Position numbers and translations under genes: made by a program. Under the pieces are notes generated by a model. That model ran no database searches and was not told the origin of the DNA. It worked only from the letters and a program-made list of their open reading frames with translations. From Amoebophrya sp. A120 (taxonomy: Eukaryota; Protista; Dinoflagellata), in the NCBI GenBank assembly GCA_905178155.1, contig CAJINV010000016.1:897386-961385 (forward strand): 64,000 nucleotides of DNA, read 5' to 3'. Positions 15,696 through 47,000 of this stretch are shown piece by piece (position 1 is the first letter of the stretch; each line of letters opens with the position of its first letter).

Positions 15696-15696
<1 letters not shown>

Positions 15697-18910: not shown

Positions 18911-19397
18911 ACAACGTACCTCTACCTGGTAGGCACGCAACAGCATCTGCTAGAGGGCAAGATGCGTGATGTGCGGCGCGTTGAGCTCGCAGCTGAGGCT
19001 GCTGCACGTCTAAAGACCGTGGCATAATTTATCAAAATGACGCTAGCAGCTTGAACCGCATTGATGCAGCCATCAGGAACAGGGAATTGAGATTGCCGGA
19101 GCTCACACAGACACCGGCCCCCCTAGGGGACGCATAGGCCCCTCCTGGCTCCGATGTTCACCTGTTGAGATGATTTTGCTTTCTTGTTTCACTTTGATCA
19201 GGTCGAAGTTAGTAGGTGCGAAAATGAAGTAAGAACTGTGAACAGAATTCGGGACACGGGCACTACGTTCGCTTGTCAAATCATGAGATATTAAAATGAA
19301 TGAGTATACCAGAAATCTTCAACAACATACGAGGGCGAGGCTAGCCACTTTCGAAGGCCCGAGGAACTAAACTAGAGAAGTAATATAAAAAAAGATC

Positions 19398-20696
19398 ATG
19401 CTTCGTTCGTCTCTTCCTCGTTTCATTCTGCGTAAATTTGAGTCCCATTTGCCGACCGTCGCGGAGTCAGCGTTTGTGGCGCCGTCGGCTGACGTGATCG
19501 GGAACGTGAAGCTTGGCGAAAATTCCTCGGTCTGGTACAATTGCGTGCTTCGCGGCGACGTGAACTTCATCGAAATTGGGAAAAATTCTAACGTGCAAGA
19601 TGGCACCGTGATCCACGTGCGGTCGGATTCCCTGGGTGGGAACAAGCCAAATCCCACGATCATTGGCGACAACGTGACCATCGGCCACAGTTGCCTTATC
19701 CACGCGTGCACGCTGGAAAGCAACAGTTTATCCAGGAAAAAAAGATTGTAGGTGTAACTTTCTTGGAGGATTAGCATGACAAATATCTCTCACATGACAC
19801 CAAAAACCTGTCATGCGCAGATAGTACGGGAAAACGCCGCTGAATGGACCCTACAATGCAGGCACAGCATGACAGGCTCAATCAGTTTGCATGTTCCGCA
19901 TCACAAATTTACACTAACAACCTTTTTTTTCTTCAATACAGCTTTGTCGGAATGCAGTCCTGTGTGATGGATTTTGCGCGCATCGAGTCCAACGGGTACC
20001 TCGGCGCGGGGTCCTTACTCCTCAGCGGCAAAGTGATACCAGCGAATGAACTATCCTGAGTAAAAATGTCCCCACACCAGAGTTGTCATGCAGATTTGCG
20101 ATTAGAGGAACGGAAGATTTGTAATGCGCATCTCCATGAGAGGCATTTCCAGTCTCGTTTTGGAATTTGTAATGCTGTAAACGGGATCAGAAGATGGATT
20201 TGTGATGCGGCTGCACTTGCTAAACTGCACTACACTACGGACTGCAATTTGCCATGCGTGGCTCCCAAAGCTTCTGGGTCTGTGTTGCTAAGTTCCCAAC
20301 TTGACTATGGGGTGGGGACGTTTTTACATATGATATCAACTGTGGGCCGGGCGGCCGGCAAAGTTTGTGCGGGAGCTGAAGCCAGAGGAGGTGGAGTTCA
20401 TTCAGAAAAGCGCTCGGGAGTATTATGACAGGTGTGCACAACTCCCCCTCCCCCTCATTTGTCATGCAAAACCCCAAATCCAAGTGCGTCCCTGTTGCAC
20501 TATTTGCATAACAGATTTTTCCGGAAGGCCAAACAGTACTACACTAGGCGCATGAATTTGTCATGCACAGGCTCCACCTGTGGTGGTGTTTGTATTGCTG
20601 TTCATGCCATACACATGAGGGGGAGGGGGGGTTGTGCGCTCTCATAAGTATGCGAAATTTGGCAGCAGACACAAAGTGTCGGTGGAAAGTGAATGA
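19398..20696 (+). CDS. Gamma-class carbonic anhydrase-like protein (left-handed beta-helix), 188 aa; exons 19398-19728, 19944-20051, 20341-20423, 20652-20696
   Basis: Motifs VWYNCVLRGDVN, NVQDGTVIH, VTIGHSCLIHAC and ELWAGRPAKFVREL; the frame is continuous only after removing three non-canonical introns. Confidence 0.93.
19729..19938. mobile_element. Introner, family F
   Basis: TAT...ATA ends; repeat CAGTT/CAGCT; near-identical to the reverse complement of 44347-44555. Confidence 0.92.
20052..20335. mobile_element. Introner, family D
   Basis: tatcctgagtaaaaatgtcccca / ggggacgtttttacatatgata; repeat TGAAC/TCAAC. Confidence 0.9.
20424..20646. mobile_element. Introner, family E (TIR tgcacaactccccctccccctcat)
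   Basis: TAT...ATA ends; direct repeat AGTAT. Confidence 0.9.
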
Positions 20697-22162
20697 CAAG
20701 CTTCTACAATTTTTTCGCGAAGAAGCTGTAAGAAAAAGTGTAATCGAATTTATACGAAAAGTTAAAGTAGAACACGACTCGTACTGAAGATGTTGACACG
20801 ATGAAACCACGCTCTGTAGAGTTCTACGAGAATATTGATGCCGTGCGTCGACAAGAAAAGGATCAAGATAGTCTTCACGATTGTCCTATTAGACTGTTCG
20901 AACCCGGCACTTCGATCATATGTAGGCGCAGCTTACTGCGCTGCAGTCGTGTCTGTTCCACTAGGCAGCGTGTGTCTTTCGAGTAAACACTGTAGAGGTA
21001 CAACTGGATGAGTATGAGAAAGGCATAACGCGAGTACGATGAAGATCTACTTGATCTTAGAATAGATAGTACAACATGTGATGCGCCGCCGTCGCAGTCG
21101 TCGCTGAGATCTCGTCTAATTTCGCTTGGTTTGCTGGCCGTGGTGAGCCTTTGTAGCCGCAGCATATAAAAATCAGTAGGTAGTTGTAAACAAAAACAGA
21201 CATTTAGTTTACAGGAACAAGAAGTTTGTCGATCTGGATCTTTATCATCAGCGATTCTTGTGGTTCTTTGAGCAGTCTTCGTTGACGAAGCCACAACATC
21301 ATCGAAGCCACATCTTCACGACGATTGATTCCGAATAGTACAAGAAAGCCTTTTTCTTTTTCTACTTTTCAACATTCCCTATAATTGAAGAATCAATCCA
21401 GCAGTAGTTCCGCTGTCATTGTCAATGTTATCCCGCCTTTGGCGCAGCTTCGTGAAAAGGGGTTTCCGTTTTTGAAAGAAGGATGAAGTTCTTGATCTCG
21501 TCCTTCCGGGTGGTGCGATTTATTTGGTAACAACAACGACGAGGGTCGTGGGCCAGAAGATCTTCATCTGACTTGACAACAGCGAAAAACCTTGTCCCTG
21601 TATAGTCTGTTGTCGTTCAAATTCATCATAAAGGAGGACCACACCGGTGACGAGTTTTCTTTGTGCGGCTCGGCAACCTCCTGCGCACCAGTGGCATGTT
21701 TCGAATAGCATTACGGATGTCGGAGTAGGAGTTCTGCAACTAAGTACACAAAGGCTGCAGCACTATTTCTTGGCGTGCGGCCGGGGAGTCCGAGGACGAG
21801 GAGGACGATCTTGTAATTAAGTACTACAGCCCAGTAGGACCAGAAGCGGAAGCAGAAAATTCCGCGACGGTGTCGCGTGATACTAGCGAGGAAGCATTTC
21901 GAAATTTTGTGTCGAATATTACGGGTTGTTTTTCTGGGGCGTCTGTAGAAGCTCGTTTTATCGCCGACACCTACTACTACTTGGAAGTGGAACTCCAGCA
22001 AGCTAGCGGCGGTGGGAACTTGAGAGCACGACGATAGCGAATTCGAAAGGCCGGCGCCAGAGTGTTAGTTTGCAGCTCAAGTAGAGCAAGCTGAAAGTAA
22101 GTAGCGGACGAGCTGGAAGGAACTTCTCCATCTGCCTCTACTTCTTTCCTCTTAACAACAAG

Positions 22163-25100
22163 ATGGGCGATCACTTTGACCTTGTCCGAGGTCCGTCGCG
22201 AGACCAGGTAAGAACCGTATGTGGAGTGGGTTTTTGTGATGTTAGAATTAGATAGACATAGATGAAACTGAAACATTTAAGTACGAAATAACGTTCAAGT
22301 AGACTGGCTTCCCAACGCGGGTCGTGCGGAAATTTGGACAGCATGAAGATTTTCAATCGATGGTGGGTTGATGACGTGACGAAATGTATATTACTTTCTT
22401 ACGCCTGGCGAAAGGAAACAAATTTTACCAAAGCTAAAGCTAAATCTGTTCCCACTCAACGCAGGACCAACTTTCGCCGGACGATCTGGAATATCGAGCC
22501 GTGCTATGAAATGGAGTCGATAATTCAGCTTTTTGATGAAACAAGTCGCGTCTGGGATAACATTAACAACACAACTTGACGCCGACCTCCCTCGCCATGC
22601 GCTGCGCGCAACTTTTTGTAAAAGTGTATAAATGCTGCAAGTGATCATGCATCACCGACGTCATAGGCATGACCGAGAAAGCAGTTTCTCTTTGCTTGAG
22701 GATACTCCATTGTGAACAAGTTTTCGTACTGGTCCGCGCCATCGACTTTATTGAGGAGGACCCTCCGTAGTTGACTCTGCCTGGCGGAGTTGAGACTTCT
22801 TGTATCAAAAAAGCTTCCGGCTTTTGCCACTCTACATTTTCTCGACGGCCTTATTCCGCTCGTTTCGGAGATCATAGACGCTCAGGGCGGATTGTGCAGT
22901 TTGGGCTTTGTCATGAACGACGACAGGGTGAAGGCACAGCTGGCGCGGGTCCCAACCGGCTTCGACAAAAAAATCACGAAGATACTGAGTATAATTTTGA
23001 TTTTGCGGCCCTCCTCGGGGTTTCATACTATTCGTTCGATGCTGATGTGAATATCGCAATTATCGCAAGGATGAAATAAACTGCTGGGAAGATTTAGATT
23101 GTGCATGTTATGATTTCTGTCAAACCGTAAAACAGGATTTTACAACGAGTATTTTGCCATCATTGACAATGGAATGGTTGCCACGAGTACCGGCTTCGAG
23201 ACGGGGAAAGTCGTGTTTAACAATGCGGGCCAGACGGTCGCAGCCAATGCCGCTTCCGTCTCGGGGGAGAACCTGGGCACTGCCATATTGTGAGGAAAAA
23301 TCACCCCCATATTAAAATGCAACTTTGTGATGCTGTTTTGTGGTCACAAATCAGATTTGTCTTGCCGAAAGTGCTTGGCGGTAGTTTCTAACCTGTTCGT
23401 CGGGTATGCAGAAGGCTAGCGATTAGGCATGGCAAACAGATTCGCAGTAGTCGAAAGCGCATGACAGCCTGGCTGCAGTATGCGCCATAAGCATCCTATT
23501 GCCCTATAGGCAAGACAAAGGCGATTTGTGAGCATTAAGCAGCATCAGAAATTTCCATTTTGATATGGGGCGGGGGCATTTTTCCTCACAATATGCCACA
23601 ACCTCGGGCCTATGAACTGCAAAAGTATCGTACTCGTATAAATGCATCACAAATTTCCTCAGCATGAGAAATAAAATTTGTCATGCTAATTTACCTTAAG
23701 AAAAATATTTGTAATGCAAGACTTGCATTTATACGAATACGATACTTTTGCACAGGATAGGGCCCGTCCGGGTACGGGAAGGGAGCCGGTGGAAAGTATC
23801 GCAAGGAAAAATCCCCCCTCCCCATATTGAAGAGGTGAGGTTTCGAGAATTTGTGTTGCTGATTTAAGGTCACAAATCACGTTTGTGCTGCAAGAAGACA
23901 AAGGCAGCAGCTTCCGTCCCATTATGGAGGCGGTTTGTCATGCTGTTGAGCCAACATCACGGACGCTTCTCATGCTAAGCGCCAAAGTCAAAGCCTCTCT
24001 ACTCAGGCTTGATATGGGTCTGCAGTCCTCTCCAGCAAGACAAATGCGATTTGTGTACTCAAATACAGCAACACAAATTTCGCTTTCGATATGGGGAGGG
24101 GGGATTTTTCCTCACAATAGAAAGGGCAGCGGTGGCGCGGGGAAAGGGGGACGCGCACCCGGTGGCGGGAACGAAACCACGGACCAAAAAGCGATACAGG
24201 ACGCTGCAGACCGGCTTTGGAAGTAGAAGAACTTTAGTTTCGTCAATGAATAAGAACTACGTGGTGAACAATAATAGGAGTCTGACTTCTCGAGATGGAG
24301 GACATAGAGTTGTGGTAGGTCCGTCCCGCGAGTGAGGTCGCCCGCGACCGGGCAAAATGGCAGGCCGGAGGGGAGGCGACTTGGCCCAGGAGCCAGGATG
24401 GCAGCGGGCGCACGCAAATACCTCCCGCTGACCTTACCGCGGCGCCAGTGGGTGCGTCCGTTGGTGTTGTAGGGTATTGCGGCTCTTTGGCGATCGCGGG
24501 CGAAGCAACTCGGGGGCGGGGGCTAAGGCCCCCCCTGCGCTAGCTTTTGACTGGGCCCGGGCTTTGGCCCCTGCGCCACCCCGGGTGGGCCGCGCCGCCC
24601 TTTGGGTGGGTCGTTAGAAGTTGCCCGGGCCAGGCCCCCCCGCCGGTTTTTTGTTGCAGAGTGAAAGAACAGCCGCGCGCCGGGGGCCCGGCGCCCGCTG
24701 GCTTTTGCGCGCGAAGCCCGGAGGCTTCTTGCGGCCGGCCGCAAGCGGCAAGCGTCTCTCTGGCCTCCGCGGCCTTGTGCGCAGCGCCCGGCCCAACCCG
24801 AGCGACCGCCCGCGGTCGCCCCAAGGCCCCGGCGGCTATTTCATTCGGGCGGGCTAGGGGGGCTGGTGGTGTTCCATTCCCGCCCCGGCATAGGCGCGGG
24901 CTTCTTTTGTAGCTATGCTCGCTGGGGATGGGGTCCGGAATGGCTCCGGGCGGCTTTGGCCCGCCGCGGCCCAGCGCAGTGAGTGCTTCCGAAAGAAAGT
25001 ATTTCAAGGGGGCGCCGGGTGTTTTCTGCGTTGGCTTTTCATTCTATTGGCTTTGGAAAATTTTGGGAAGGCTTCGGGGAGATATTCGGGAGGCCCCTGC

Positions 25101-27688
25101 CGTGCTCTTTCCAGTTTTTCCAGAAAAAAGAAGAACGGGGGGGCCCGCCTTGCGGCCTCCGCGTTGGTGCGTCTGCCCGGGCCCGCCGCACGGGAGGCGC
25201 GCCCGCATATTGGAGGCGTTGGCCCGCCCCGGGGAAAGGGTGCGCCGCAGAGCGCGGCCAGGGAGGCGGGCCAGTCTGCCCTTTGCCGTCCGAGCCCGCC
25301 CCGGCGGCTTTCGCTTCTGCCCTGCCCTCCGCGCCGCCCCATGGCAGTCTTTTGGCCGGCCTTGTGCTTCGGGGCAGCCAGGCGGCCTGTTGGCCCGCCT
25401 CCGTCCGCCCCGGCGCGCGCCCGTCCATTTCGCCGGGGGCCCCGGGCCTTCGCTCCTTGTATTGCCCGGCCCGTGCGTGTGTCCCACGCACTCGGCGTGC
25501 GGGTGTACCGCCCGCGCCCTAGCCAGAAACTGCCTGCGTGGCGCGCCCCGCCCGCGCGGGCGGGCACGAAAAAGGGGCCGGCCCCAGGACAGGCGTGCGC
25601 GGGCGAAGGGGCCCGCAGGAAGGGTGGCGCCACTTATTTTGCCCACTGGACTGACTGACTTCGCCCGGTCGGTCGCAATGGCGGTGGGCACGCACCCACG
25701 CAGGCAAACCAGCTCGGCGGCCGAACTGCCGGCGAGGGCCCGAGGAGCGATGGAGCAGAGAAGCTGCATGCCGCCGCCCTAATGAGAATGAAGACTGGCA
25801 AAAAGAGCAGGGGCGGGGCCCGCCAAAAGTTGGGCGGCAGTGGGCCTCGGCCTGGGCATCCACCCCATGTGCGCGCCCATGCTATGGGCACCGTTGTGAC
25901 AGCCGGGCGGGTCGTGCCCGGCCTGCCGCGCGCGGCTTTCTCTGGGCCCTCTCGCGTAGTTCGGGTCCAGAGGGGCCGTGGGTCTTGGTCTTGCTTTTCC
26001 TTTATCGGTCGCCGCGCCGCCGTGTCCTACCTGCAGAACATTACTCAATAGGCATAGCCATTATTTAGTCATGACGGCGTGGCACGGGAGTAAAGACCTT
26101 GGAATTAATGCGGGCAGGGTGCCTAACCCGCGGGGGAGAAAACAGTCCAAAGCCCGGGGCGGTTGGATGTGGATCAGGGGCAAATTTTGTGCATGTGCTG
26201 GAAATTTATTGTTGAAATATTTTTGAAAAGCTTTGCGCGGTCCGTTTGTAGGGTAGCTTTGCCTTTGCCATCGCGTCGCCTTATAGCTTTGTCTTTTGTC
26301 GCCGCATTCCCGACATCGCACTACCATGAGGATTGAGTATATTCCGCATGGAAAACTCGCGCAAATTGTTAAAGAGCACCATACCGCCGCGATTGGGGTT
26401 TTTCTGATTTTTCGGTTTTCGGTTTTGGGTTTTATATAGCAAAATCTCCTCCCTGGTCCTCCCTACCCTGGGACCCGGGATTCTATAAACTCTTCTGATA
26501 TGAGTCTGCCTTCTCGAGATGGAGGACATAGAGTTGTGGTAGCTGTGCTTATTCAATATCGGTACTAAATTTGTCAAATCGGACTTACCACGTGCACGTC
26601 GACAAGATTCTTGTGAAACCCGACAACAGTGCCGTCTTCGACATTGCCGACGAGGACAAATTTGCGGCCGCGATTGGCGAGGTGAATTACGTGCGAAAGA
26701 AGCTCTGGGAAAAGGGCATTCTGCACCTCCCAACCCCCGACTCCCTCGGCGCTGGCGCCTTGGGCGGGGCCGGGGGGACCAACCACGACGGCGGTATCGG
26801 GCACATTCCTTTCGCCGGCAACGTCACCCACCTAGTACCCGGCGCAGCTGGTGGAGGTGCGCCCGCCCCAGGTTGTGGTGGCGGCGGGGGAATAAATAGC
26901 AAGGCCGTCTCCGCCGCCGCCCCCGGCTTTGGAAACCCCACCGCGCCGGGAGGAGCAGGAGCTCCGGGGCTAGGGGGGCCCGCAGCCGCGAACAACAACA
27001 GCTGTACCTACGCCGCGGCGCCCGGATTCGGGCCCGCACCGGGTTTCGCCGCAAACAGCCAGCATAACAGCTACGGGTCGAGTTCCTACAACCATCATGG
27101 CCCGAACACAACCAGTCCGAACGTGGTCAATAACAGTGCTTGTTACGACCAGCACGGGTATAATAACACCTCCACAGCTGCGCATCTTTCCGGTAGTACT
27201 TCGCACCACACCACCACAGCGAGCGCGGCGCACAGCAGCAACAATCCCCCACTGTCGCTCGAGAAAAGAGACGGCCGCATGGCGGTTTTAGGGCAGGCGT
27301 GTGTGGACTTCTTGGCGCAGTGTCCGGAGAAAACGGTACTGATGCAGCACTTGAGCTCTGACCCACAGATCACGGAGCTGAAGCGCGGTGTGGTGGCGAA
27401 GTTTGAAAAATGGATCAAGCAAAACGAGCATGTGTTTCGGCTAAAGGAGGTGCATCAGGGGGGCACGGTAAGTAATATTTGGTGATGTCTACTATAGATA
27501 GTTGTTGATCCTTCCATGTTGAAAGCGAATTTAAGCAGCAGTTCTATACTGTACAATTTTTTTCTTCACATAAAAATCAGGTAAAAACGTACATCAACCT
27601 GCACTTGGAGCCCAATGAGAACGGCGAGATGATATTTCCCTCGGCAGTGAGTGGCCTGCACCCCTGTGCCTCGGTGGCGGGTTGTTAA
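22163..27688 (+). CDS. Gly-rich hypothetical protein with possible winged-helix/LOTUS-like segments; exons 22163-22207, 22465-22504, 22842-22988, 23136-23285, 23599-23610, 23765-23796, 24125-24222, 26579-27467, 27581-27688
   Basis: Reconstructed continuous frame MGDHFDLVRGPSRDQ|DQLSPDDLEYRAVL|DGLIPLVSEIIDAQGG...KIL|RFYNEYFAIIDNG...GTA|TTSG|PSGYGKGAGGK|GSGG...DRLW|NRTYHVHVDK...QGGT|VKTYINL. The domain call is resemblance only. Confidence 0.65.
22505..22841. mobile_element. Decayed IR-bounded non-canonical intron
   Basis: Starts TAT; agctttttgatgaaacaagtc pairs with gacttcttgtatcaaaaaagct; ATA end and direct repeat are lost; removal gives EYRAVL-DGLIPL. Confidence 0.55.
23286..23593. mobile_element. 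Introner, family C (TIR aaaaatcccccctccccatat)
   Basis: tattgtgaggaaaaat / atttttcctcacaata; direct repeat TGCCA. Confidence 0.9.
23611..23759. mobile_element. Introner, family A
   Basis: TAT...ATA ends; direct repeat GGGCC. Confidence 0.92.
23797..24119. mobile_element. Introner, family C
   Basis: TAT...ATA ends; direct repeat GAAAG. Confidence 0.92.
24278..26542. other. GC-rich island 2, bounded by a 41-bp direct repeat
   Basis: gagtctg(a/c)cttctcgagatggaggacatagagttgtggtag at 24278-24318 and 26502-26542 (one mismatch); 75% GC in sampled line 25201-25260. Confidence 0.85.
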
Positions 27689-28603
27689 AAGAACATGTTA
27701 ATATCGTGCTGGTCGACGTCGGTTCTGGATTTATTTTCGGCGCTCCCCGAGGCTGAGGTGCAGGAGTACTTCTTTTAGGCGTTTGGTTTGCGCTAGGATA
27801 CTATTACTATACAAGTTACAGCACCTCCTCCCTGATAGTGCAAGGGAAAAGAGCTACGGGATAGGATTTCCTGGCAGAAAGTAAAGCATAAGCATTCCAA
27901 TGGATGAATCGACATCACGACGACAAGAAAGACGAGAATAAACGCCACGACTGATAGAAGTAAGTACTTATCATCTATTCGCGCTTCCAGATGAACGGCA
28001 TGACTGAGTATGTGAGTTCTTCTCTGTAAACTCGACGACGCAGAGGCAGATTGAATCTGCAATGTAAAAAGCGACATCATCACAACTAATAAGGAAGAAA
28101 ACTGCTGTGGCTGTCACAGCAGCCGCCGGCCGTGACAACGAAGGTCCGAGTTCGTCTCCATCGTTGTGCCCTGGTGAAGGTGGCGACTTTTTTATCGCTA
28201 AGGACTTCCCGCAAGCTACACGCTTCAGTTACAAGGAATTTCGATTTATTTCTTGATGTCGTTCGAATGCGAATCTTTTTTGATCCGCACAGAACAAGCT
28301 GCCAAAATGAGTAGAGAAGTGTAAGTTTTGTCGTGACTGAAGCTTTTTAAACCGATGGGGATGTTGCCGATCTCATCGTCACTCGTTGATCTCCCGCAAG
28401 GCCCAGTTAGCCTCTGACTTTTTGTCCCCCTATTTATCGCACCAATGGAACAAGAACGCAGAAGAAGTACTAAAGTCAAGTTGGATTCCAATTCCTTATA
28501 TTGCAAGACGCACTACCACCTGTTCGTGCATGTATTTTTGAGTACCTCAAGTTTGCGACTAGAACTACCTTTTCCACCTCCGCTCCTTGAAAACGAGAAC
28601 ACC

Positions 28604-29900
28604 ATGGCCCGGGTAAGTGGAGCTGCTCCTTTTGGCCTCGATGTACTTGAAGCAGACCTGCAGCATTGGCGGGGTGAAGAAGCCTATAGCGCGGCGACGT
28701 TTGTGGACCTCAACAACGTGGAATCGCCGCAGAACAACAAGAACCGTGGCTCAGCAGCCAGCCGTAGGTCCCCCTCACCGAGAAGGGGCGCAAAACTGAC
28801 CCTGTCCCGCGAAATTGCCCAATACGAGGTGCTATGCATTGCAAAAGCGTCGTACTAGTATAAAGTGCATGTTGACAAATTTGCTCAAGAACAAAAAAAT
28901 GCAATTTGTAGTGCTGTTTTCCCTTAGAAAGTAGATCTGTCATGCATGGCTGCAATTAGTACGAGTGCGATACTTTTGCACTGGATAGGTGCCGCCGCAC
29001 TTGCGGGTGCAGAGTATGGATGAGCAATTTTTGCTCGAGAAAAAGTACCTCGATCTGTACAAACAGAAGCTGGAAAAAGAGATAAAACGGGAGGAATCTT
29101 TGCAGAAAAAGGTAGTACACATATCAATGCTTTTCAGCCGTTGCGGACGTTTTTCTTTTTGCATTATTGTTTTCCGTCATAGCGATAGGGATAGAAGTAC
29201 TTACAAGTAGTAGAGGACGTGTAGTGTACCAGTGAGGGTGGAACAGGCTGTGCACAATGAATTTGAATACACAATCGACCACACGCCCCAGCCGGCGAAC
29301 GAGAAGCAATCCTCCCTGATGCAAGAGCTTCGCTCCTGGCGGGAGAAGCAGAAGGAGCAGATCCAGAAGGAGACGGAGGAGAGAGACAAAAAATTGTCCG
29401 ACATGCAGGAAATCACACAGGCGACGGAGCATATCGCACGAAAAAACTGTTTCATCACTGTGAACTTGTGATGCATAGAGTTGAAGACTGAAACTAGTTG
29501 TCTTGCTACATCTGCAAGACATCGGATTTTTCATCAGCGTGTTTTCCCCTTGGGAAGCGCGCATAGCAGGTTTTCTGTGTCATGTGTAACGAACTTGTGA
29601 TGCAGATCTTGCAAAATCATCACAGAGAGACAGTTTTTTTGTGGGATAGAGCAGGAATGTCGCAAATTTTTGAAAAAATACGACTGGGACGTCAAAATTG
29701 CGTGTGAACAATATTTATGCATTGCAAAAGTATCGTACTAGTATAAATTGCATCACAAATCTTAGCAAGAAGAAAAGTGGAATTTGTAATGCTGTTTTAC
29801 CTTTAGGAAGGAGATTTGTCATGCATATTTGCAATTAGTACGACTACGATACTTTTGCACAGGATAATATTTCAATGGCGAGGATGTCAGCGGGTCGTGA
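28604..29900 (+). CDS. Coiled-coil protein with a C-terminal UBA-like domain; exons ~28604-28832, 28993-29111, 29238-29431, 29654-29715, 29872-29900
   Basis: Reconstructed C-terminus KLSDMQEITQATEQECRKFLKKYDWDVKIACEQYFNG fits the UBA-like (TAP-C/UBA_4) pattern. Confidence 0.75.
28833..28987. mobile_element. Introner, family A (also readable as GT-AG intron 28829-28988)
   Basis: TAT...ATA ends; direct repeat GGTGC. Confidence 0.92.
29432..29648. mobile_element. Introner, diverged family F
   Basis: tatcgcacgaaaaaactgt / acagtttttttgtgggata; direct repeat GAGCA. Confidence 0.88.
29716..29866. mobile_element. Introner, family A
   Basis: TAT...ATA ends; direct repeat ATATT. Confidence 0.92.
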
Positions 29901-30732
29901 ACAAACTGGTGAACATGATCTTCTTCAAGGACATACTACTTCGCGGTTTAGAAGTTTGCTTTTTTTAGATGAAGCGAACAAGAAACAGAATTGAAGTGAA
30001 AGAATGAAGATGCTCCTGACAGGAAAGTTTTGTTCTGTTCTTTGCCGCAAAAGATGTTTGTCGCGTCTATAGATGGAAAAATGCACTGTCGTAAAGATGT
30101 ATCCACCGCAGGGTGTGTTGCTGCTGCTGATATGTACCGCAATTCGTATATGAAAATGAGTATGAAACGCTAAGGCATCCGTAACTCGTCGTTCCTTTTC
30201 ATCGTGATCCTTCGTACCGTCTTCGTACTCATAGAACGCATCTCGACGACGTCCAAACATTTACAGCTTGTCACCTGGTGCACTTGTGGCAATCGTTGCA
30301 AGAAACTCGCTCAGCATTAACTTGAAACGCACTCCCTATAATCCAGCGAGAAGCACCAATGAACCAAATTTATCTCCATTCAAAAAAACAGCTTGGTGTT
30401 GTGTCTTTTCCACGGTGTCAAGGCGCTTTTTTTTTTGTTCACTATCGGGAAGCTAGAACGTGAGTATATGTAGTTTTGATTTTAGCATTGGGAAACTACC
30501 GACAGCATAGCACTTTTCTACTGGGATATTAATTTGTTCACATATTACTACACGCACTACGACTACCCTACACGTAAAAGTACAATGTTTCTATCGCTTC
30601 TGAAACTCAATAAACGCATCATCACTTCTTACATTCAACATTTTCATCCTGCTCCTCGCATGGTCACAAGTTCCTTCTGCTAGTGCAATTGATTTCAATT
30701 TGTGCACATATATAGCACATTAAATTTCTATC

Positions 30733-32217: not shown

Positions 32218-33722
32218 TGATGGGAGACAGATTCATTTGTGGTTTCACAGACGAGCATTAGTAGGTTAGTACTACACATTTTTTCTTTAGTTTTCGTTAA
32301 TCATTCACATGGGAATTGTTTTAGGTTTCGCGCATATATATACACAGTTTTCAAACTTCCCTTTGGGATTTTAGTTTTCAATATACACAGTTTTACCAGC
32401 ATGGGAAATAATCATAAAATGGGAAAATACAGTACAACACGGGCAATTACCGAGAGGACCGGAGATCATGCGCATAATGCACCACATTCGTCACAGTTAG
32501 AAGCAGTAGTTTCTATCCGAGACTACTTACAATCTTTCGCTCTGTTTCTGATTGATGAAGCTTCATTTTCTATTACTTGTTTTTTGTCGTCCTCTTTCTC
32601 ACTAGTATCCCTTGTTCGATGTAAGACAGTGAGTTGTACGCAGATGTACCTGTGCACATGAGTATCAGTAAAACTTCTGTCCCGGTGACACGGTAGTTGT
32701 TGTAAATTATTATTTGTCGATGATGATGGAAGGCGAAGGCGTGCCCAGCGAAGGCGTTCTTTAGCCACAGCTGCATTCGGCGGTTAGACCGTCTCGCTAC
32801 ATTTTGATCGTGTTCTCCATGACGATTTGCCTCTTTTTCTTGTTTTCATACCGTTTTAGTAGCTTGTCACACTCTTGACAGCACACATTATGGAGATGGA
32901 GTGGCAGCCGTTTAGTCGTGGCACATGCGTCGTCTTCAGGCGTGAATATTTGTTTACTGCTTCACTTCTGTGCAACGTAAGAACTGCAATTTATCAAATA
33001 ACATCGTTGTGCAACGTGGTTTCTTTGTCTGCATCAACTACATCAGTGTAGTGTTTCTTTCAGGAGTTTGATCGTTCTTCAATCTTTATTTCTCTTGGCG
33101 TGGCTGCAAGAGTGCCGAACTGGTACCCATTGCAACGCATTCGCAAAAAATATCGCATTCAGATTCACCACAACCGAAAGGGGAGGGACTCGGACTACAC
33201 GGACTACAGGCATGGGCGTTACTAACAAAAATTTCTACTTAAGTTTCACAATCGTGACAGGACACTGCTCACAATAAAAAAAAATCATGACGGTGTAAAT
33301 CGAACAAGTCAGAAACGTTTTGGTTCACTGCAAGCAAGGTTGTCTCTCCTATTCTTCGTTTATTTTGCAGTTCGCCTTCTGCTGGTGAACCAGAGACTCA
33401 TCGCGGGAGGTCGTCCACACCACCAGGACTGCTCTTGAAACAGCTGAGCAATAAGAACTTGAGCAACTTCATCCTCGGCAACAAACTTCATCGCGGCAGC
33501 ATTCCGGTGCGAGATTTACCCACGGCATGGAAATCGGATTCTAAACCGCCTATGGAATATGTTTGCAGCGCCGAAGCTGCACACGATTTGTGGATGAGCG
33601 TTGATTTTTTCGATGATGCGATTATAGCGATTCGTATTCTGCTTGTCTTACTTTGAGCTACGTTTTTGAGCAAAAATAACGGCTCGCTAGCTACAAATTC
33701 CCCCTTGCCATAGAATCCGGTT

Positions 33723-36700: not shown

Positions 36701-39700
36701 CAAAAGTAAAAATGTCTGGGTCTGGAAACTTGTGATGCTGGGTGGCGTCTCATGATGAGGCTACAAATGCTGGCTCAGCATGACAAGTTTCTGAGCTCCT
36801 AGGTGTTGCCTATTCTGCATGACAAACTGCGCTTCTGCATCACAGAAAAACGAAGCTCTTGGGTAACTTGCATGACAGATTTAAGAGTCATGCCAGACAA
36901 GAATGACAAACATGAATTCTTCCAGACCCAGACATTTTTACAGTTGATAACACTGCAGCAGCTGCGATTGACCACCAGAACCGGGTGATATTACAGCAAC
37001 AATTCAAGAACAAAGAGTTTATCTATCAAATGCAAAAATGTCTGGGTCTGGAAGATTGCCAGGCTTGTCCTCATGCAGTTTTTCCAAGCTCCCCCACGTC
37101 TGGAATGCAGGGCCTAGCATTACAGGTTCTGCAGCTCCTTGGTGATGCGTATTCTGCATGAGAAATCGACTCACAGCATGGCCAGAAGTGGGCACCTTTT
37201 GCACGTTATGCGTCACAGATCTTTGTAGGATCCGAAACACGCATCACAAGTTCGGAGCCTTCCAGACCCAGACATTTTTGCATTTCATATTATCGGGAAC
37301 GCGACAATTTTACCGCCGGGCGCCATCAGTCGGGCGAACTCGTTGCAGAACAAGGGGAATTACACACCTGGTGCGGGTGGTGGAGCGGCTGCGGTATGGA
37401 ACGAAAAAACTGTGTCAGTGTAGGTGTCTTCGGGTCGTGACAGCATGACAAATTTTTTCTGCATGACACAGAAATCCTGTCATGCAGAATTAGTACGGGA
37501 AAACTAAACACCTGCGCCATAGGACTACTTCATGGCTAGCTAGCATGACCAGTGTAACAGTGTTGCATGCTTTGCATGACAGACTTACACTTACACAGTT
37601 TTTTTCTTGCATATGCGGGGTCTTCGTCGTACCAGCACGCGGGCGCGATCCACTTGGACGACTTGTATCATAGCGGTAGCAAAGGACCGGGCGCTCCTGG
37701 TTCTGCGCAGCATCACATGCACGTCGAGCACTCGTTTCCCCAGCCACCGAGCCCGAAGGGAGCAGCTGCGTATAATAATCTTCGGAAAAGCAGCGGGGGA
37801 GGAAAGCACGCGTATAAAAATGCAAGCGACCCCCGGAACAACGGGGATCAAGTTCAAGATTTCCGAGATGAGTTGTGGGAGAGTCGAAACAGCGATCAAC
37901 AGCAGCCGAACCAGCAAAGTGGTCGAAAGAGCCGAGGAAAGAAGGGGAACAGAAAGGATTCAGGTTCCAAGGGCAATTCGCGGGGCTCTCGCAACGAACC
38001 CCGAAGCTCGGTCGAACAGGACCAGCTGGATTTCGACGTGGACAATGATGCAGACTGGCCGGCAGTAATTCTGCCCGGAAAGCAAGACCCCTCGACGACT
38101 CGGGGATCTTCATCGGGCGGAAAGCAAGGGATGAAGCCCGGTGCGTTTCAGCATCTGGAGCACGATCCGTACTACTTTCACACCAACCCGGTTTTCGAGC
38201 AATTCTATGACTGGGAAAGGCTCGAGCAGATGCGCGCGATACAACAGCAGCAGGGTGCAGCTGGGACGGGCACGGGTGGTACTTCTGCAGGACAGTACCC
38301 AGGTACTAGTTCAGCCGCAGCCGGAGGTAATTTTCAAAATCATGTCGCGCACCACGCGCCGTTACCGCCGGTGCCACCCCCGGCCATGGTTCCGCCGTAT
38401 CACGGTGGTGCTCCTGGAGTAGACCTCGCCTATGGGTTCGCGCCGGGGACAAGAACCACGAGCGGTGGGAGAGGTTACGGAAAGTCCGGCCCGGACCCCC
38501 TGATGGATCGAAAAGGAAGCACGAGTAAGCAGGGAGCTGCTGACGGGGGGAAAAATAACTCTCGTGGAGGTTCCAAAGGTGGTGGTGGGGGGCCGCCGCC
38601 CAATCGGAACCGGAAAGGCAGCGGTGGCGGCAAGCAGGGCGGATCAACATCTTTTGGTGCGAACCAGGACGGTGTCGGTGGAACAAGATCCTCAAGCAGC
38701 TCCTCTTCTTCCGCCCGAAATAGTACAACCGGACCGCTGCCGAAACTAGGAAACAACGAGTTGCTCCACCAACGGAGCAGCGGGTCCAGCAAGGACAACA
38801 AAAGCGATGGACATGGTCGCAATCATTCGAAGAAACAAGGAAGAGTACAACTACATGAAGGCTCGGGTTCCCGCCGGGACAACTCGAAGCGCGAGTCGAA
38901 GATGTCCAGTTTGGACACATATGCATTGCAAATATGTCTGGGTCTGGAAGAATGGAAGTTTGTCATGCTTGTCTCTCATGACTCCTAAGTCTGTGATGCA
39001 TGAGCAGGATGAGAGTCCCTTTCCTGTCATGCAAAAACACAGCTTGCCATGCAGAACTCGCAACACATAGCAGCTCAAGAACTTGTCATGCTTGGCTGCG
39101 TATTGCAGTGTGTCCACCATTCCCAAGCCAGCATCACAAGTTTCCAGACCCAGACATGTTTGTATTTGATAACGCAAACGGTGGTGATCAAGATCATATC
39201 ATCGACGCGGCACAGGGGAATGTGAACGGACGGAGGGTCACACACCATCGGGGCATTGAGTAAATTAATACTTTACTTCTACTGTTTCTCTTTGTCTTTC
39301 TCATGCGACAAACTTTTTCTCTTTCTCATGCGGGATCGGATCGATTGATTCCTATCACAATGACTCAATGTGAAAATCCTAAAAAGGTACAAGCACAACA
39401 AAGTGCCCCGCAACAAGGATCTCCTGGCGGAATACGGCCAGACGCTGTCCGAAAAACCCATCACGACGCTGATGATCCGGAATATTCCCAACCGGTACAC
39501 GCAACCCCAATTTGTTCTATGCATTGCAAATATTTCTGGGTCTGGAAACTTGTGATGCAAGAAAGGGAATAGTGAGCGCACTGTGATGCGCTGCTCAGCA
39601 TGACAAGTTTTTCCGTGGTTCTGAGTTGCGTACTCCGCATGAGAAACTGCGTTTTTGCATGACAGAGAAGAGGAGCTCTTCGCGGCCATGCAATACTTAC

Positions 39701-40839
39701 AGAGTTCAGAGTCATGCCGAACTAGCATGACAAATCTCGTATTCTCCCAGATCCAGACATATTTGCATTTGATATGTTCAGGAACTCGACAACATCGGGT
39801 TTGCGAAACAGTACGATTTCGTGTACCTCCCGATCGACCGGAGCACAGAATCTTCTGTGGGCTACGCATTTGTCAATTTCAAAAAGGCGGCAGACAGTGT
39901 GCGGGCGCTCAGTGTTTTCGGGGAGTACCGGTTTCACAGGTACATAGCTCTTGAGCGTAGTGGTTTTTTGATGTCATGCATGAGTTGTTCGCGCACCGCT
40001 GTCCTATTGGGCTGTAGTTGTGCAGCTTTTGCACGTAATGTTCCAACGGCAAGAGAAAATGATGAACCACCTCTGCAAACAAAAACCCCAGGTATCGCAA
40101 CGTTTCTTCTAAAGTGGGCTCGGTTTCCATCGCGCACATACAAGGCTTGGAGAATAACATCGCGCACTACAAGAAATCGGTGATCAACGATACGAAGAAC
40201 CGGTTTCGCCCGCTGGTCATCCGGGATGCGAAGCAGATGCGGGAGCAGCGGGAAAAGCGGATGTTGAACAATAACAATAATTCTGCGAACAGCAAGAACA
40301 GCTGCAACCAAAACAGTGACCAACTCGAGCGATTGGAGGACCATGTTGATGTGCTGGTTGAGGAGGAGGAGGAGAATGACGTTGGTTCCGGCGGGTCGCG
40401 AAACGCCAGTAGAACACAGAGCAAGGTGGACGACAGCGCGAAAGCAGAAGATACCTTTGCCAACAAAAATGATGAGGACCACTTCCACGCGTCTTCCAAA
40501 AATCCGCCCAAGCAAAAGGTTGCCGGTGAGGCGAAGGAAGACGCAGATGAGAATTCAGCGCCGGTGAAGAACAAGGCCGGCAGTGAGGACATGCTTCTGC
40601 TCGACGAGCCTCCGGAGCCGACCACCGTGTCGACCAAGCCCCAGGACGATTTTCCGGAGCCGAGCGAAGCCGGTCAGCAGGACGAGTTGGCGAGCATGTA
40701 CGAGCACAACGATACCCTCAACAAGAACAGCAAGGGTGAGGACAACACGCAGCGCAGCTTGTCGGAGACCAACGAGCTAGGTGGAGCTCCTACCGCAGAA
40801 ACGGCGACGGCGGGCGAGCCCGTTTCCTGCAACTTTTAG
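33723..40839 (+). CDS. Mei2-like RNA-binding protein (C-terminal RRM_2) with a long Q/G/H/S-rich N-terminus; ~15 exons, start uncertain
   Basis: Reconstructed TTLMIRNIPNRYTQPQFVQELDNIGFAKQYDFVYLPIDRSTESSVGYAFVNF...AHIQGLENNIAHY is the Mei2 RRM3 signature; 9 introners plus GT-AG introns 34080-34236, 34502-34613, 34742-34873, 39260-39386, 39940-40091. Confidence 0.85.
35154..35321. mobile_element. Introner, family B (short, diverged)
   Basis: TAT...ATA ends; direct repeat CGGGA. Confidence 0.85.
35362..35511. mobile_element. Introner, family A
   Basis: TAT...ATA ends; direct repeat ACAAT; interior closely resembles 23611-23759. Confidence 0.92.
35547..35702. mobile_element. Introner, family A
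   Basis: TAT...ATA ends; direct repeat CGAGT. Confidence 0.9.
35755..36016. mobile_element. Introner, family B
   Basis: TAT...ATA ends; direct repeat CAGCA. Confidence 0.9.
36698..36949. mobile_element. Introner, family B
   Basis: TAT...ATA ends; direct repeat ACACT. Confidence 0.92.
37024..37289. mobile_element. Introner, family B
   Basis: Near-perfect ~30-bp TIR; direct repeat TTATC; interior resembles 3485-3743. Confidence 0.93.
37395..37613. mobile_element. Introner, diverged family F
   Basis: tatggaacgaaaaaactgtgt / acacagtttttttcttgcata; direct repeat TGCGG; internal tagtacgggaaaac shared with 19729-19938. Confidence 0.88.
38920..39171. mobile_element. Introner, family B
   Basis: TAT...ATA ends; repeat ACACA/ACGCA. 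Confidence 0.9.
39518..39774. mobile_element. Introner, family B, interrupting the RRM
   Basis: TAT...ATA ends; direct repeat TGTTC; interior is in opposite orientation to 38920-39171. Confidence 0.92.
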
Positions 40840-43800
40840 TAGAGAAAATTGTCACACTCACTACAAGAACTGAAGCTGGACTGAAGTCATCCTTTAATTA
40901 AAGCTGAAGATGTGGAACTCAAAACAAGCATGTTTACTAATAAATACTAATTGCTCAACATGCTCTCTACTCGGTTTCGTAGTATATTTGTACTGTATTT
41001 TATCGATGACGATGGATACAGCTTCACGTATATGATCAGAAAATATATCGTTTCAAGCGCAAGTTTTCAAATTTTTCTTTCTAACGTTCTGAAATCAAGC
41101 GCCCGCACCGGCTAGTGCGGTCTGTTTTCTACCGGTACTATCTATCAGAAGTATGCGAATCATCTGGATCGCAATCGTATTCGTATCTCGGAATTGCTAT
41201 ACTCAAAAAGAAGTGATTGTGATGAGAAAGATTTTGATCATTCTTTCGAGCACCATACCTCGAAAGGAAAACAACAAAAGAACTCCTTTGTTTTTGGTCG
41301 TAAGTATAATTAAGCAGGGACAAGAAGTTATCAAACTTTGTCAAGTTGGAACAATCACTCACTCGACGTGCAGTTGGTTGCTCGAACAAATAAGAATAAA
41401 CCTGGAACTACCTCTAGATACTTAAAAATTTCGTAAATTCTTGGCGCGCGGCCTCCAGCGAGAGGACGGCCGCACTTCATCTCGATAATTCAGTACAGTA
41501 GAAGGCGATTTTTTTTCATCGATCTGCTATTTCGAGCTCGAAGTTCAAGTTGTAGATGAGAGCACTGTATGGAAGTATGCTCAAATAAGATAAGTAGATG
41601 AAATACTCTAAAAATAAGTAGAGCACGATTTTGGAATTTCGCGTTCGCCATTATACGCTACCGACAAGAAAAATAAGGATAAGCTCGTCCGGCCATGTGT
41701 CGCGATTACGAAAAGGAAAAGGGACGCTGTTCTCGTTTCCAGCTGATGTAGGTATAGTATGAGAACAGTCACGGCTTAGACCTGGCCCTGATCCCTTGAG
41801 CCAGTAAAATAGCCAAACCCAAAAACTAAAAAAACAATTGTTGGAACGGCAGTTCAGTTGTTGCGAAGAACACATACTAGACTTGTATCGCTTGTTGTAG
41901 CAAATGGCCTGACGATGTTGACGCACATGAAAGAAGCAGCTATCATCTTCATGGGTGATTTTTTCAACCGGGTATGGAAAGGGCTTAAGGTCGAGCAGCT
42001 CGAGGCACAGCTCGTAGCTCGTGCGGTGAAAGATGAAAGTAAGTGGCACTACAAGTACCGACACCGAGAAGGTGCGCCATGTAGCATGCTTGGGGGCAGT
42101 CCCAGTCCTTCCCGGTACCATCTTCAAGCTGCTAGCTGTGTGCAGCGATACTAGAAGATACTTGATTTCTCATGCTGCCGCTGCCGCCGACACTAGGGCG
42201 GGGCTATGAAGGGAGTAAAATCCTCGCAGTAAGCGGAGGACCGCTGTTGGCGTAGCAAAATGAAAATACTCTAGCAACTGGAGTTTGTTTTGATTTTTGG
42301 CACGAGAAACAAATATATACCGTGAGGACTAATATAATCATGACGCACGCGCACCTAGCTAGTACAGCATATGCTCAAGGCAATTCACTCACATGATACA
42401 CATACTATCATTGCGGACCTCCATTCGCCTGGCCTCAGAGCTCCCTCGCTCCAGGATGAGATTTTCACAAGCGGATGTGCCTCTACACTATGAAAAAGAA
42501 ACGAAAAGCAATGTATAGATACAGTGGGTCGTTGTTGTTTTCCTGCAAAGGACGCCCAACTGAATTCAAGTGCAACATCTTCCGAGTTGCCACTATCGGT
42601 GTGCGATGGTGATTAAACCTTGGCTGCCGGATTTTCAAATTCCTACCACAGGAACATGGACGAGGCACAAAATCAGCAAGGTAGAAAAAGGTTGCACTTC
42701 CGTGCAATCATAGGAGATGCGAAATCACTTAGCCTCTCAGTCCAGAGACGGATCATGCTAGAGGTTGCTTGTTGCCTCGCAAATCTGTGGTCCTGCGACA
42801 AGCGCAGCACCACCATGCTGCTATACGCACCTCGAAGGAAGAACGAAAACATCATCGGGTGTGCAACGGATGAACACAATTTCAAGTCACGTACGAACTA
42901 TGATTATTTTCAGTACTGCAGTCTTTCTCTTTTCTCGTCGACAGACACAGATATCACCTTTTTATGTTTGCGAATTTTCACAATTTTCCTTTTCCTAATT
43001 TTCCGATCTAAGGTGTCGAAAGTTTCTCTGTCTATTGTTGCCTATCTTCATTGTTGATTGACTTCCAAAAAAATGATTTATGTTCGAATTAGAATAAGAA
43101 TTCAAAAGTATTTGTATTTCGAGAATTTTCCGCTCAGTTTTTTCGATGTTTTCCGATAGGAGTCAGAGTCTGTTTCCCAAGAAGTTGTCAATATCTTTTG
43201 CGACGCACCGTAGTGGTCGCTCCTACCTTTTACTCAACAAGCGATAAAAAATATATACGATTGATAGAAATGGAAATAAATTCTAGGCAGTTCGTAGTTG
43301 CTATGAAGGCAAACATCACGTCAGTAAATTAAGCACCGGACAGGAGGTGAAGCGAGAAAATATGAACTCGGCTACAATGATATGTGTATGTCACACACCT
43401 ATAACTACCAAAAAGTTGGTTCGGGGGTTTTATTTTCACCCAACCACTGAAAAAAAATCGTGCCAGGTTGTGCCTGTTGTTGAAAACTTTGCTTTTGGCA
43501 GGTTGGTAGCGCGAGGATGCGCAAAAACGAGTTCGGTGCGCGGAGTATTCTAGAGCGGTACCCGATGATATTCTTGTTCTTCCTCAACATCTGTGGTAAC
43601 TGCAGTTGCACGAAAATAAAATCCTGCTGAGCACGCGCCTCTCCTACATGAAACTGAGTCATGATTGAAGTCACGCACATGAGAAAGCAAGACCGCTTAG
43701 ATAATGGGTCATCTAATTGCGCAACATGGACGAGGGAGCTCCACGAGCAAGGACGATGAATAAAACCCACGGCCAGAAAACTTGGCTACGTTACTGAGCT

Positions 43801-44032
43801 TAATTTTGGTTTTGCAAAGCGTTTACTTTCGTTGAAACGCCCAAGGGTACGGAGGTCAGACTGACAAGGACTAGTGACACAGTAGGTTTTGTGCTAAGTA
43901 TCAAATGCCCTAGTATGAATCGTAGAATGTTGCGCCCTGAGGTGTGGCGTAAAAATGAATCATAGCTGACATCGATCAGGGAACGTCCTTGAACAAGAAG
44001 ACAAGCAGTATCAGTATTCATCAAAAAAGTAA

Positions 44033-47000
44033 ATGACTATGATGTCCTCCTCTTCCTCTTCTTCTGCCCTGCATCAGAACTATAGGGTGATGCAGATGAA
44101 CATGAATGCGATGAACAACAGCAAGCAGCACCCCTCGAGCTCCTCCAGCAGCTCCGCAGCTGCTTCCTCTTTTCTGCAACAGACGCAGCAGGTGCTCCGC
44201 AACAACTTCGGCAACAAGTTTAAGTCGCGGAGAGGACACCAAGGTTTGCTGAAAAACAGCAGCAAGAAAACGACGTATCAAGCGAATTTCGGCTACGACT
44301 ACCTCGCGTCGGCCGAAACGCTCGTGATTGATCCGAATGACCGAGATATGCAAGAAAAAAACGTTGTTGGTGTAAATTTGTGATGCGCAACATGCAAATT
44401 GATTGAGCCTGTCATGCTGTGCCTGCATTGTAGGGCCCATTCAACGGCGTTTTCCCGTACTATCTGCGCATGACAGGTGTTTGCTGTCATGCGAGAGATA
44501 TTTGTCATGCTAATCCTCCAAGAAAGTTACACCTACAATCTTTTTTTCCTGGATACGAGAATTGGCGAAAAATGAAAATCTGAACCACAAAGGTCTCATC
44601 AACGACGGTTGGAGCAGCAGGCCGGTGCCGGACGTGGTAAATATACATGATCAGGTCTGTTTAATGTGTAAGACGCCTGCGACATATTTGTGTAGTATGA
44701 ACGTATGACACACACACAGACACACCAGAGTAGGAACTTGTTCTGTATCAACATCAAAGTCTGTCAGTGTCAAGTCCGCCAGCAACGAACTCTACCCGTC
44801 GAAAATCTACTAACAGGTCCTGCGGAAGGTCTACCAAATGACCACTCCCCCGCGCGATGTACCATTTCCATCGAGCAAGACCAACACATTGCTGGATGAC
44901 GACGATGAGCTCCTTTTTGCTGCCTCCGAAGAACAACAAACACACGGAATAAAACAAGCCACCGCCTCGCACAGCAACCAGTCCACGCCGAACGCGACTA
45001 AAACTAAGCGGAAAATGATGAAACAGACGCCGGGCAGCAAGAGCATGAAGCGAGTTGTTCATGGGTCGACAGCTTCGCAGATGAACAATAGTAAAGCTGC
45101 CCGCATCGATGATGACTTGGAGCTGGATGAGAACGGACAGTTGGTACGAAAAGGAGCTGCTGGCGCAATAGAAGGCGAGGTCGATGCCGAGGAAGACCCC
45201 GATGCGGATGAGACGCTGGTAGGAGACGGAGCAGTGACATCAAAGGGATCAAGAACAGAGAAAATGTCTACTTGTACTGCTACTTCACGAAATGCTCCGA
45301 CAACATCCGTCGACCTATCGCAGCACCTGTTCTGGCGTTCCAGACTGCTCGACGGCGACAACCTCTGCGTGTCTGGCTTGGGGAGCAAGTACGCGATGCT
45401 GCGGAGATTCGGCCGCAGCTGTGTGAAAGAGATCGCGTTTCAGACGGAGGGGGTGGTGGAGCACTTGCTGGTCGATTTCGAAAACGACAACAACACCACG
45501 GGCGATGAGGAATCCAATGCCCACCCCGCGATTCTAAAGCATCTAGGCGAGGACGTGGTGCAGCAATGGGAACGGGAAGAGAGGGACGAGCTGATGATGA
45601 TAGTGGACAATGGTGAAGATGCTGATCACGATGTCGTGATGGGAGAAGAAAATGATAGCGATAATGGACTGCTAAATCCTGGAAGAATAAACACGCACTT
45701 TTTCCAGAAATATAATCATACACGGAAATTTGACTACCTGGTCGAGGTAATCGGCGGTTGGACAACACTGCTTGACTCCCTGGAGCAAGCATTTCAGAAG
45801 ATTGCGAGCCAATTTTTGGACAATCTGGTGGAGCTAGCGGATGTAAACCTGTTGCAAAGCAGGACAAAGGATATCCAGAAAATGTTTCACCGAGCCGTGC
45901 ATGAGGCGAATTTCGACCTGAAACCGGTGCGGAAAGTATCAAATGCAAATATGTCTCGGTCTGGAAAGTTGTGATGCTGAAGTTTGGATAAAGACTGGCG
46001 CTCTCAAGTGCAACCACGCATGACAAGTATAGTACTTGACGCCATGTGCTGTGTAGCACGCATGACAAACAACTGCGTTTTTGCAGGACGAAAAAGTAGT
46101 CCCTTCCTTGCTGGCTGTGCAATACAGATTTCTCAGGAATGCAAGACATGCAACACAAGTTCCACTTTTCCAGACCCAGACACTTTTGCATTTGATAGAA
46201 AGAGTGGCCGAGCGATTACGAGTACGACACGCCGGAGAAGTTGGAGTGCCGGGACTATCTGAAGGAGCAACTGCAGGTAAAGAAATTGTAAATGGGTTTG
46301 ACTTTGTTGTACTTGGAAACAACAAGTACGTACCTAGTTAGCTACCCTCCAGCACGTCGTGACAAAAGCCGCTGGCTGTAATAAACAAGCCGGAACTACT
46401 TGTTTTCTCTAGTCTTGTTGGGAACGCTAACTTTCATGAAGAAAACTCATTTTGTAGATCATGCAAATACAAGAAAAAGAAAAGCACAACATGATCTATT
46501 ATCAGCCTTTCCTCGAGCAAGCCCCGGTTTCCTCCCGCACGCCAACTGCGCCGCTGCACTTCGTTTGCAACTTTTTTCGTGAGTTCGTTGAGTTCGCGGA
46601 GGTGAAAATCTTGCTGGTGGTTCACTGCTACGAGAAACTAGTCTGCCCCAACAGTTTGTACTACCAGCACGCGAATCTGGTTGACGGGTTGATGGAGCTG
46701 GTGAGGCCGGGCGCAGACGAAGAGATTTTTGGCAGTAGTGCCATCGGCGAGGAAGGTAGAAGAGGAGGAGACGGTCACTATCAAAGTGAAAAATCCCCCC
46801 TCCCCATATCGAAAAGGTATGTTTCCGAAAATTTGTGTTGCTGATTTGAGGTCGCAAATCACATTTGTATTGCAAGAAGACAAGGGCAGAAGCTTCTGCC
46901 CCACTATGGAAGCGATTTGTCATGCTGTTGGCCCTAAATGTGACCTGTTTGCCATGCTGAACAACTAGACCCATACGCCCCTCTACCTAGCCTGGGGATC

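Follow-up and report, generated by a model that had tools for sequence, protein, structure and literature searches.

The introner elements of the dinoflagellate Amoebophrya sp. A120 were described by Farhat et al. in 2021 (PMC7789003), and their families are given in PMC12130899. These elements have an inverted repeat that starts with TAT and continues with seven freer bases and a run of A, direct repeats of 3-5 nucleotides (nt), families of about 150-330 nt, non-canonical ends and hosts in co-oriented gene blocks. The removal of tens of thousands of non-GT-AG Amoebophrya introns without a detectable U1 small nuclear RNA was left unexplained in 2021 (PMC7789003). In the text and supplement passages of that report, splice sites are called variable without a clear signature, orientation relative to the host gene is not reported and no rule concerning U at intron position +2 (U+2) and A at position -7 (A-7) is given. 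The method of PMC12130899 demanded same-orientation similarity among introners. Here, 35 elements were analysed in a 64,000-nt stretch of A120 (contig CAJINV010000016.1, positions 897,386 to 961,385 of the forward strand), hereafter called the window and used for all coordinates unless a locus is named. These elements, which run from TAT to ATA, are very probably transposon-like introns present in both orientations and removed from transcripts. The best explanation of the whole, with a probability of about 0.58, is that they are cut out by a relaxed spliceosome that would read no more than two bases, the U of the 5' TAT and the initial A of the 3' ATA.

The window elements are almost certainly of the same class as the published A120 introners: a TAT-N7-AAA inverted repeat (at least 3 A), a direct repeat at the borders, repeated families, removal from RNA and non-GT-AG ends were all found. 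Inverted-end DNA-transposon introners yielding introns in either orientation are likewise known from Polarella glacialis (classes 6, 8 and 10) and Aureococcus anophagefferens (10.1101/2020.10.14.339549). The introners of these two species have 8-nt duplications (GHN6), a GH donor, an element-borne 3' splice site and a biased orientation, whereas the elements here have a duplication of 5 nt, show neither a target requirement nor an orientation bias, and lack GT/AG; neither GH/AG ends nor 8-nt duplications were found. The nonconventional introns of Euglena (PMC12501133; PMC11282704) also resemble miniature inverted-repeat transposable elements (hereafter MITEs), have paired ends and short end triplets at fixed spacers, lack GT-AG and coexist with GT-AG introns. 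They carry CDG/CH'G with spacers of 3 and 5-6, are followed by a purine opening the next exon and are excised as circles; the elements of the window carry TAT/ATA with spacers of 1 and 4 instead of the N3-CDG...CH'G-N5-6 signature, and share with them a predicted end-joining stem (33 of 35). The non-canonical introns of Fritillaria borealis (PMC11282704, PMC13326754) are transposon-derived too, with inverted ends and duplications, and are handled by a modified U2-type spliceosome. Their ends are AG-AC or AG-AT, U1 is conserved and U2AF2 has extra copies, whereas here neither the first base nor the last is constrained, and no U1 has been detected in A120. From the canonical U2-type intron the window elements differ in lacking GT...AG ends, and share with it, given the register described below, a U at +2. 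The element class is known, and bidirectional intron creation is by itself not new; the site-free, unbiased, non-GT-AG form and the candidate two-base code appear unreported. No report of orientation counts, of a 1/4 register or of a U+2/A-7 constraint for Amoebophrya was found in the searched literature, which left subscription journals mostly outside its coverage. The novelty of the register is limited by the figures of PMC7789003 (Fig. 3 logos, S19-S25), which may already show it.

Besides their TAT start and ATA end, the window elements have imperfect inverted arms of about 28 nt and a 5-bp target duplication (Table 1). Block-shuffled windows, used as a control for the scan, gave 0-1 element matches, and a scan free of the TAT requirement returned TAT...ATA in 26 of 27 window matches and in 187 of 208 over the window and the loci. 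These loci, 167 in number, came from a pattern scan of metagenome contigs (all of the 80 loci listed come from one assembly) and carry the same families as the window, with up to 96% identity. Among their 251 strong inverted-repeat TAT...ATA elements, 221 had a duplication with at most one mismatch, 191 of them exact. Element length had a median of 261 nt (range 112-631), and A was found at arm positions 11-13 in 170-180 of 189 elements, at each end. Duplication mismatches amounted to about 3% per site, or about 8 per position; a 4-bp duplication plus one variable base was dropped as a description, since a plain 5-bp duplication fits. Short length, terminal inverted repeats, a fixed-length target duplication and occurrence in either orientation are the defining features of MITEs, and all were found. 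The initial annotation had proposed that the element moves as DNA, and inverted ends with a 5-bp target duplication are DNA-transposon anatomy in support of it; the elements likely spread as non-autonomous DNA transposons. The end pattern of family B had 0 matches in viral contigs, and Rfam 0 matches in the window. An inverted-repeat element at 3-247 resembles the family labelled 11111 and lacks TAT/ATA ends; its right arm overlaps the start of a 1439-codon open frame. Three additional bases separate the duplication from TAT in elements of two metagenome loci (L005, 2120-2341; L026, 279-591), which represent natural spacer variants.

Near-identical copies had been noticed in opposite orientations in two + strand genes, with about 12 differences in 210 bp and unlike target repeats, together with opposite-facing homologues within single genes; alignment bore out all of these points. 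Global alignment of the copy at 19729-19938 (+) with the reverse complement of 44347-44555 gave 198 identities, 11 mismatches and 1 gap, that is 12 differing columns of 210, and BLAST 95.5% over 201 nt (E 4e-88). The local score of this family A pair was 358 in reverse vs 36 in forward orientation, and 243 vs 22 with the end repeats trimmed. The target repeats, both of 5 bp, were CAGTT/CAGCT (one mismatch) at 19729 and CGAGA/CGAGA at 44347. Reverse and forward scores were 176 and 55 for the family B pair 38920/39518, and 198 and 55 for the family C pair 57972/61130, so that both pairs face oppositely. Movement can be called recent only in a relative sense, at 12 differences in 210 and with no empty site seen. 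Both family A hosts lie on the + strand. The gamma-carbonic anhydrase (gamma-CA) label of the first is firm (PDB match, E 8e-33), its unspliced frame containing stops and its spliced frame giving a 188-aa protein; the host of 44347 is placed on the + strand by GT-AG introns reading on + in the same contigs. Its ORC2 label fared less well and is tentative, with Pfam PF04084 at E 0.0013 and 18.6 bits, under the 25.1 cut-off, and no backing from the PDB or Atlas searches. Removal of elements restores + strand frames of 876, 1439 and 1585 codons.

Host strands were assigned with a codon model that had learned from the frames of the window; it placed all 35 window elements on + (two weakly). Among the 245 locus elements, a strand was given for 154 (91 minus, 63 plus), the other 91 lacking either a confident host strand or enough flank. 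Window and loci together comprise 189 strand-called elements, of which 175 belong to 11 families and 14 to none. An orientation split near 50:50, which the initial annotation had expected of orientation-independent excision, was found by family in this sample: copies in the two orientations relative to the host strand numbered 55:48, 13:12, 6:7, 5:4 (family C), 5:3 (family A), 3:2, 2:2, 2:0, 1:1, 2:0 and 1:1, and no family departed from an even split. Of 51 pairs with at least 90% identity, 28 were opposite-facing.

Excision was followed in RNA-type contigs from 4 runs, representing at most 2 samples of 1 study; the RNA nature of the runs is a guess, and their contigs show neither strand nor efficiency. 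All seven elements of the interval 38500-48400 were joined across, as were four GT-AG introns reading on + in the same contigs. The 44347 copy was joined across in 3 of 4 runs, and both orientations of the B pair were removed within one contig of one run (X6 record 9). Evidence at the gamma-CA copy is indirect and comes from a contig of 801 nt that leaves the genome sequence at 19727 and has 396 letters elsewhere; by length arithmetic, these displaced letters fit three spliced downstream gamma-CA exons. Excision in both orientations is thus supported by contig joints at 44347 and at the B pair, and indirectly at the gamma-CA copy. In raw RNA runs with the same species label (X10 and X11), only 5 and 1 reads mapped to the window. 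In X10, otherwise unmapped, 4-5 reads match the family B end at 37024-37057 and nothing else, their flanks being foreign; a related strain may share this end. Such introner families have been described as strain-specific.

A perfect duplication leaves six equivalent cuts, and mismatched duplications narrow the choice. The register is pinned at 47937 because the two copies of its duplication are unlike at positions 4 and 5: left position 4 and right position 5 are retained in each of the four runs, which places the cut after position 4. Lower bounds were obtained at 38920 (after position 3 or later) and at 19729 (position 4 or later). One exact junction and two bounds thus partly show that the cuts fall 1 nt ahead of TAT and 4 nt beyond ATA, giving an intron N-TAT...ATA-NNNN whose first base and last four bases would be supplied by whichever target was hit. 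The 47937 intron happens to begin with GT, and ends in AC. Since the gamma-CA transcript appears to keep left position 4, the AG at 19940-19941 is likely not its 3' end.

In this register, GT was found in 6 and AG in 4 of the 35 window elements, both together in 0. Over the 189 strand-called elements, neither GT nor G+1 was enriched (G at +1 in 60, p 0.58), and A at -2 was in modest excess (68 against an expectation of 53 once phase was controlled for, z 2.5). No target-sequence demand was seen in the G+1 test (n=189) or in the GY-AG scan of the 35 window elements, nor was TATG preferred at the donor side (38 vs 45). In agreement with the initial annotation, no canonical GT, AG or strand-biased branch motif was found in the 35 window elements or the 189 strand-called ones. 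According to Table S4 of PMC7789003, T is the second base in all of the nine commonest non-canonical motifs of A120, and A the penultimate one in eight. Intron phase was biased in the same register (92 phase 0, 40 phase 1 and 50 phase 2 among 182 elements, p 4e-6), despite a near-absent sequence preference in the duplication; a preference for S-W-S targets is perhaps the cause. Many predicted GT-AG introns begin with GTAT, some with GTATGC like the element ends (loci L055, L038, L043, L067 and L020 and one window gene), so that either element ends resemble the common donor of the host or old elements turned into canonical introns.

Copies with an altered end triplet allowed the two ends to be compared by host strand. 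Sixteen were found among about 275 elements (13 and 3 from two scans, host strands rechecked); each sits in a frame that is open once the copy is excised, and most copies contain stops. The outer base was changed 9 times at the host 3' end (-5) and 0 times at the 5' end (+2), the middle base once at +3 and 4 times at -6 (one -6 copy being also counted at -5), and the third base 3 times at the 5' end (+4) and 0 times at the 3' end (-7). This asymmetry had a Fisher p of 0.0045, or 0.028 without three weak strand calls. Given the register above, U at +2 and A at -7 were never altered in the elements examined, these 16 included. Measured against the rate of about 8 mismatches per duplication position, free drift is seen at -5 but not at +2 or -7. 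The sequences thus suggest a directional constraint in which U+2 and A-7 would be held while their pairing partners are free. A symmetric constraint, at the DNA level or on pairing, is disfavoured because the variants are asymmetric by host strand. A simple strand mutation bias does not fit either: in sense, T>C is seen at +4 and never at +2, and A>G is seen at -5 and never at -7. Rare variants at arm positions 4-30 showed no strand asymmetry (188 at 5' vs 218 at 3').

Excision by a relaxed spliceosome using a branch A is somewhat favoured on this sequence pattern. U+2 would be the second base of the donor site, A-7 the branch nucleotide, and the 3' cut would be set by its distance from A-7, while the long stem predicted between the arms may help to bring the intron ends together. 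U+2 is near-universal in spliceosomal introns. SF1, U2AF65 and U2AF35 are listed for A120 (PMC7789003), and the branch point is fixed at -8 in Entamoeba invadens, position-fixed branch points being known from other reduced systems as well (one or more of PMC9860276, PMC11282704, PMC13326754, PMC12005148 and 10.1101/2022.06.08.495308). Since the inverted repeat reads alike on either strand, both orientations present the same signals; whichever pathway acts, orientation independence then comes from palindromic ends, and a direction-free machine is not needed. Of the earlier proposal that recognition is symmetric or structure-based, the symmetry of the element thus stands, and direction-free recognition does not, the U+2/A-7 constraint being directional and RNA-pairing selection showing no sign. 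Tentatively, at slightly less than even odds, the splice code may be cut down to N-U...A-N6, with U+2 and a branch A-7 taken from a palindromic transposon end and no U1, GT, AG or target requirement, so that any TAT...ATA insertion, at any site and in either orientation, would become a seamless intron at once.

Several observations weigh against the relaxed-spliceosome explanation and its premises. The exact register comes from the single junction at 47937, itself starting with GT. The 16 end variants belong to a separate metagenome assembly, with host strands from the codon model and splicing not checked in RNA, and their pattern was found post hoc in a small set. YTRAY occurred in 90 of 189 elements on each strand, without the strand excess expected from selection for U2 pairing around A-7, and the better-matching end was not favoured at the 3' side (38 vs 45). 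Among 20 roughly predicted GT-AG introns, A stood at -7 in 5 and was not fixed; this prediction by codon score was noisy, kept 20 of 56 introns and yielded no branch consensus. Pairing of the arms was predicted for 33 of the 35 window elements in sense and for 32 in antisense, and own-arm complementarity was slightly above cross-arm complementarity in 2 of 5 families (p 0.002 and 0.022), which a pathway that reads structure would require. The absence of a detectable U1 in A120 (PMC7789003) counts on the same side, as does the fact that neither a cognate transposase nor empty sites were found, no whole genome or orthologous locus having been compared.

Another pathway, outside the standard spliceosome, could read the inverted-repeat hairpin and a short end motif, make its cuts at constant distances of 1 nt and 4 nt, and release a circle, as in Euglena. 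It would share the architecture of N3-CDG...CH'G-N5-6 with its fixed spacers, agree with the sense-strand prediction, for 33 of 35 elements, of a stem at arm positions 8-28, and account for the lack of GT, AG or U2-type context and for the undetected U1 of A120 (PMC7789003). We consider it unlikely, though the most serious alternative, because the terminal pairs are not kept as pairs: the partner of U+2 drifts in 9 cases (to C twice) and that of A-7 in 3. Pairing at arm positions 4-7, which border the cut, is limited to 65-138 of 189 elements; G-U pairs are not in excess over A-C (203 vs 186, p 0.42), giving no sign of RNA-pairing selection on the transcribed strand; sense and antisense fold equally (p 0.39); and transposition requires inverted repeats anyway.

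Two further explanations are very improbable. Each orientation might carry its own canonical donor, branch point and acceptor and be spliced in the ordinary way, as suggested by CTAAC, a T run and YAG near the 3' end of the gamma-CA copy (about 19913-19941) and by an AG at the inferred 3' end of 22 of 189 elements vs a 6.9% background (p 0.02, uncorrected). Contig joints and the GY-AG scan already largely refute this: a GY-AG reading in any register is possible for only 1 of 35 window elements, CTRAC occurs in 5 of 189 elements in sense vs 9 in antisense, the contig end at 19727 implies that the gamma-CA AG is bypassed, and the 47937 junction ends in AC. It is equally improbable that one orientation is unspliced, that a host lies on the other strand, or that the joined contigs are DNA alleles without the element, even if the runs are only guessed to be RNA, the contigs tell nothing of strand or efficiency and the gamma-CA evidence stops short of the joint itself. 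The same contigs also lack GT-AG introns reading on +, both B orientations are removed in one of them, and the joined forms keep one duplication copy and restore frames of 876-1585 codons.

Table 1. Coordinates, orientation and supporting evidence of the elements and host genes discussed in the text
Feature	Position	Strand	Details
35 TAT...ATA elements, whole window	327..61456		31 exact duplications, 3 with one mismatch, 1 with two
Family A core TAT...ATA, 210 nt, in gamma-CA gene	19729..19938	+	inferred intron 19728-19942; frame restored; contig departs from genome at 19727
Left 5-bp target duplication CAGTT	19724..19728	+	right copy CAGCT at 19939-19943; transcript appears to keep left base at position 4
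Family A core, 209 nt, reverse-facing, in + strand ORC2-like gene	44347..44555	-	inferred intron 44346-44559; CGAGA at 44342-44346 and 44556-44560; joint 44341>44556, 214 nt, 3/4 runs
Third family A copy, diverged, facing as 19729	37395..37613	+	alignment and family grouping
Family B element, duplication ACACA/ACGCA	38920..39171	+	joint 38917>39175; left position 3 kept in transcript
Family B element opposite to 38920, same RRM_2 gene	39518..39774	-	joint 39512>39775; removed in same contig as 38920
Family B element, duplication GAATG/GAACT (positions 4 and 5 differ)	47937..48198	+	intron 47936-48202 = 1 nt + core + 4 nt; joint 47935>48203, unambiguous, 4/4 runs
Family C element, opposite to 61130, 46779 and 23797	57972..58292	-	alignment; removal restores 1585-codon frame
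Family C element, same AAA-ATPase gene as 57972	61130..61456	+	alignment; frame restoration
Gamma-CA gene with three TAT...ATA elements (19729, 20052, 20424)	19398..20696	+	PDB match, frame restoration
ORC2-like gene (tentative) with five TAT...ATA elements and two GT-AG introns (44637-44816, 46277-46505)	44033..48286	+	contig joints, frames, sub-threshold Pfam

Other features were noted in the window. The RRM_2 gene at 34868-40839, which we take to be Mei2-like, contains nine TAT...ATA elements, and one contig continues unbroken to 43378, 2.5 kb beyond its stop. A GC-rich segment of 2.2 kb (24274-26542) lies between 45-bp direct repeats (95.6%) and has a DNA depth of about 300-350 vs 45. It apparently falls within an intron ending at the AG at 26629, and its kind of repeat differs from the TAT...ATA elements. 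A second GC-rich stretch, at about 5800-7500 (0.62 in 6001-8000), had no self-BLAST match to this segment.

A defined register with two constrained bases makes the non-GT-AG splicing of Amoebophrya directly testable, and offers a fixed rule for correcting ambiguous intron borders in such genomes. Together, the register and U+2/A-7 would explain how these elements can insert without a filter on site or orientation, unlike other introners. If the Euglena-like pathway were the true one, the elements would have arrived independently, by convergence, at a code of the Euglena type.

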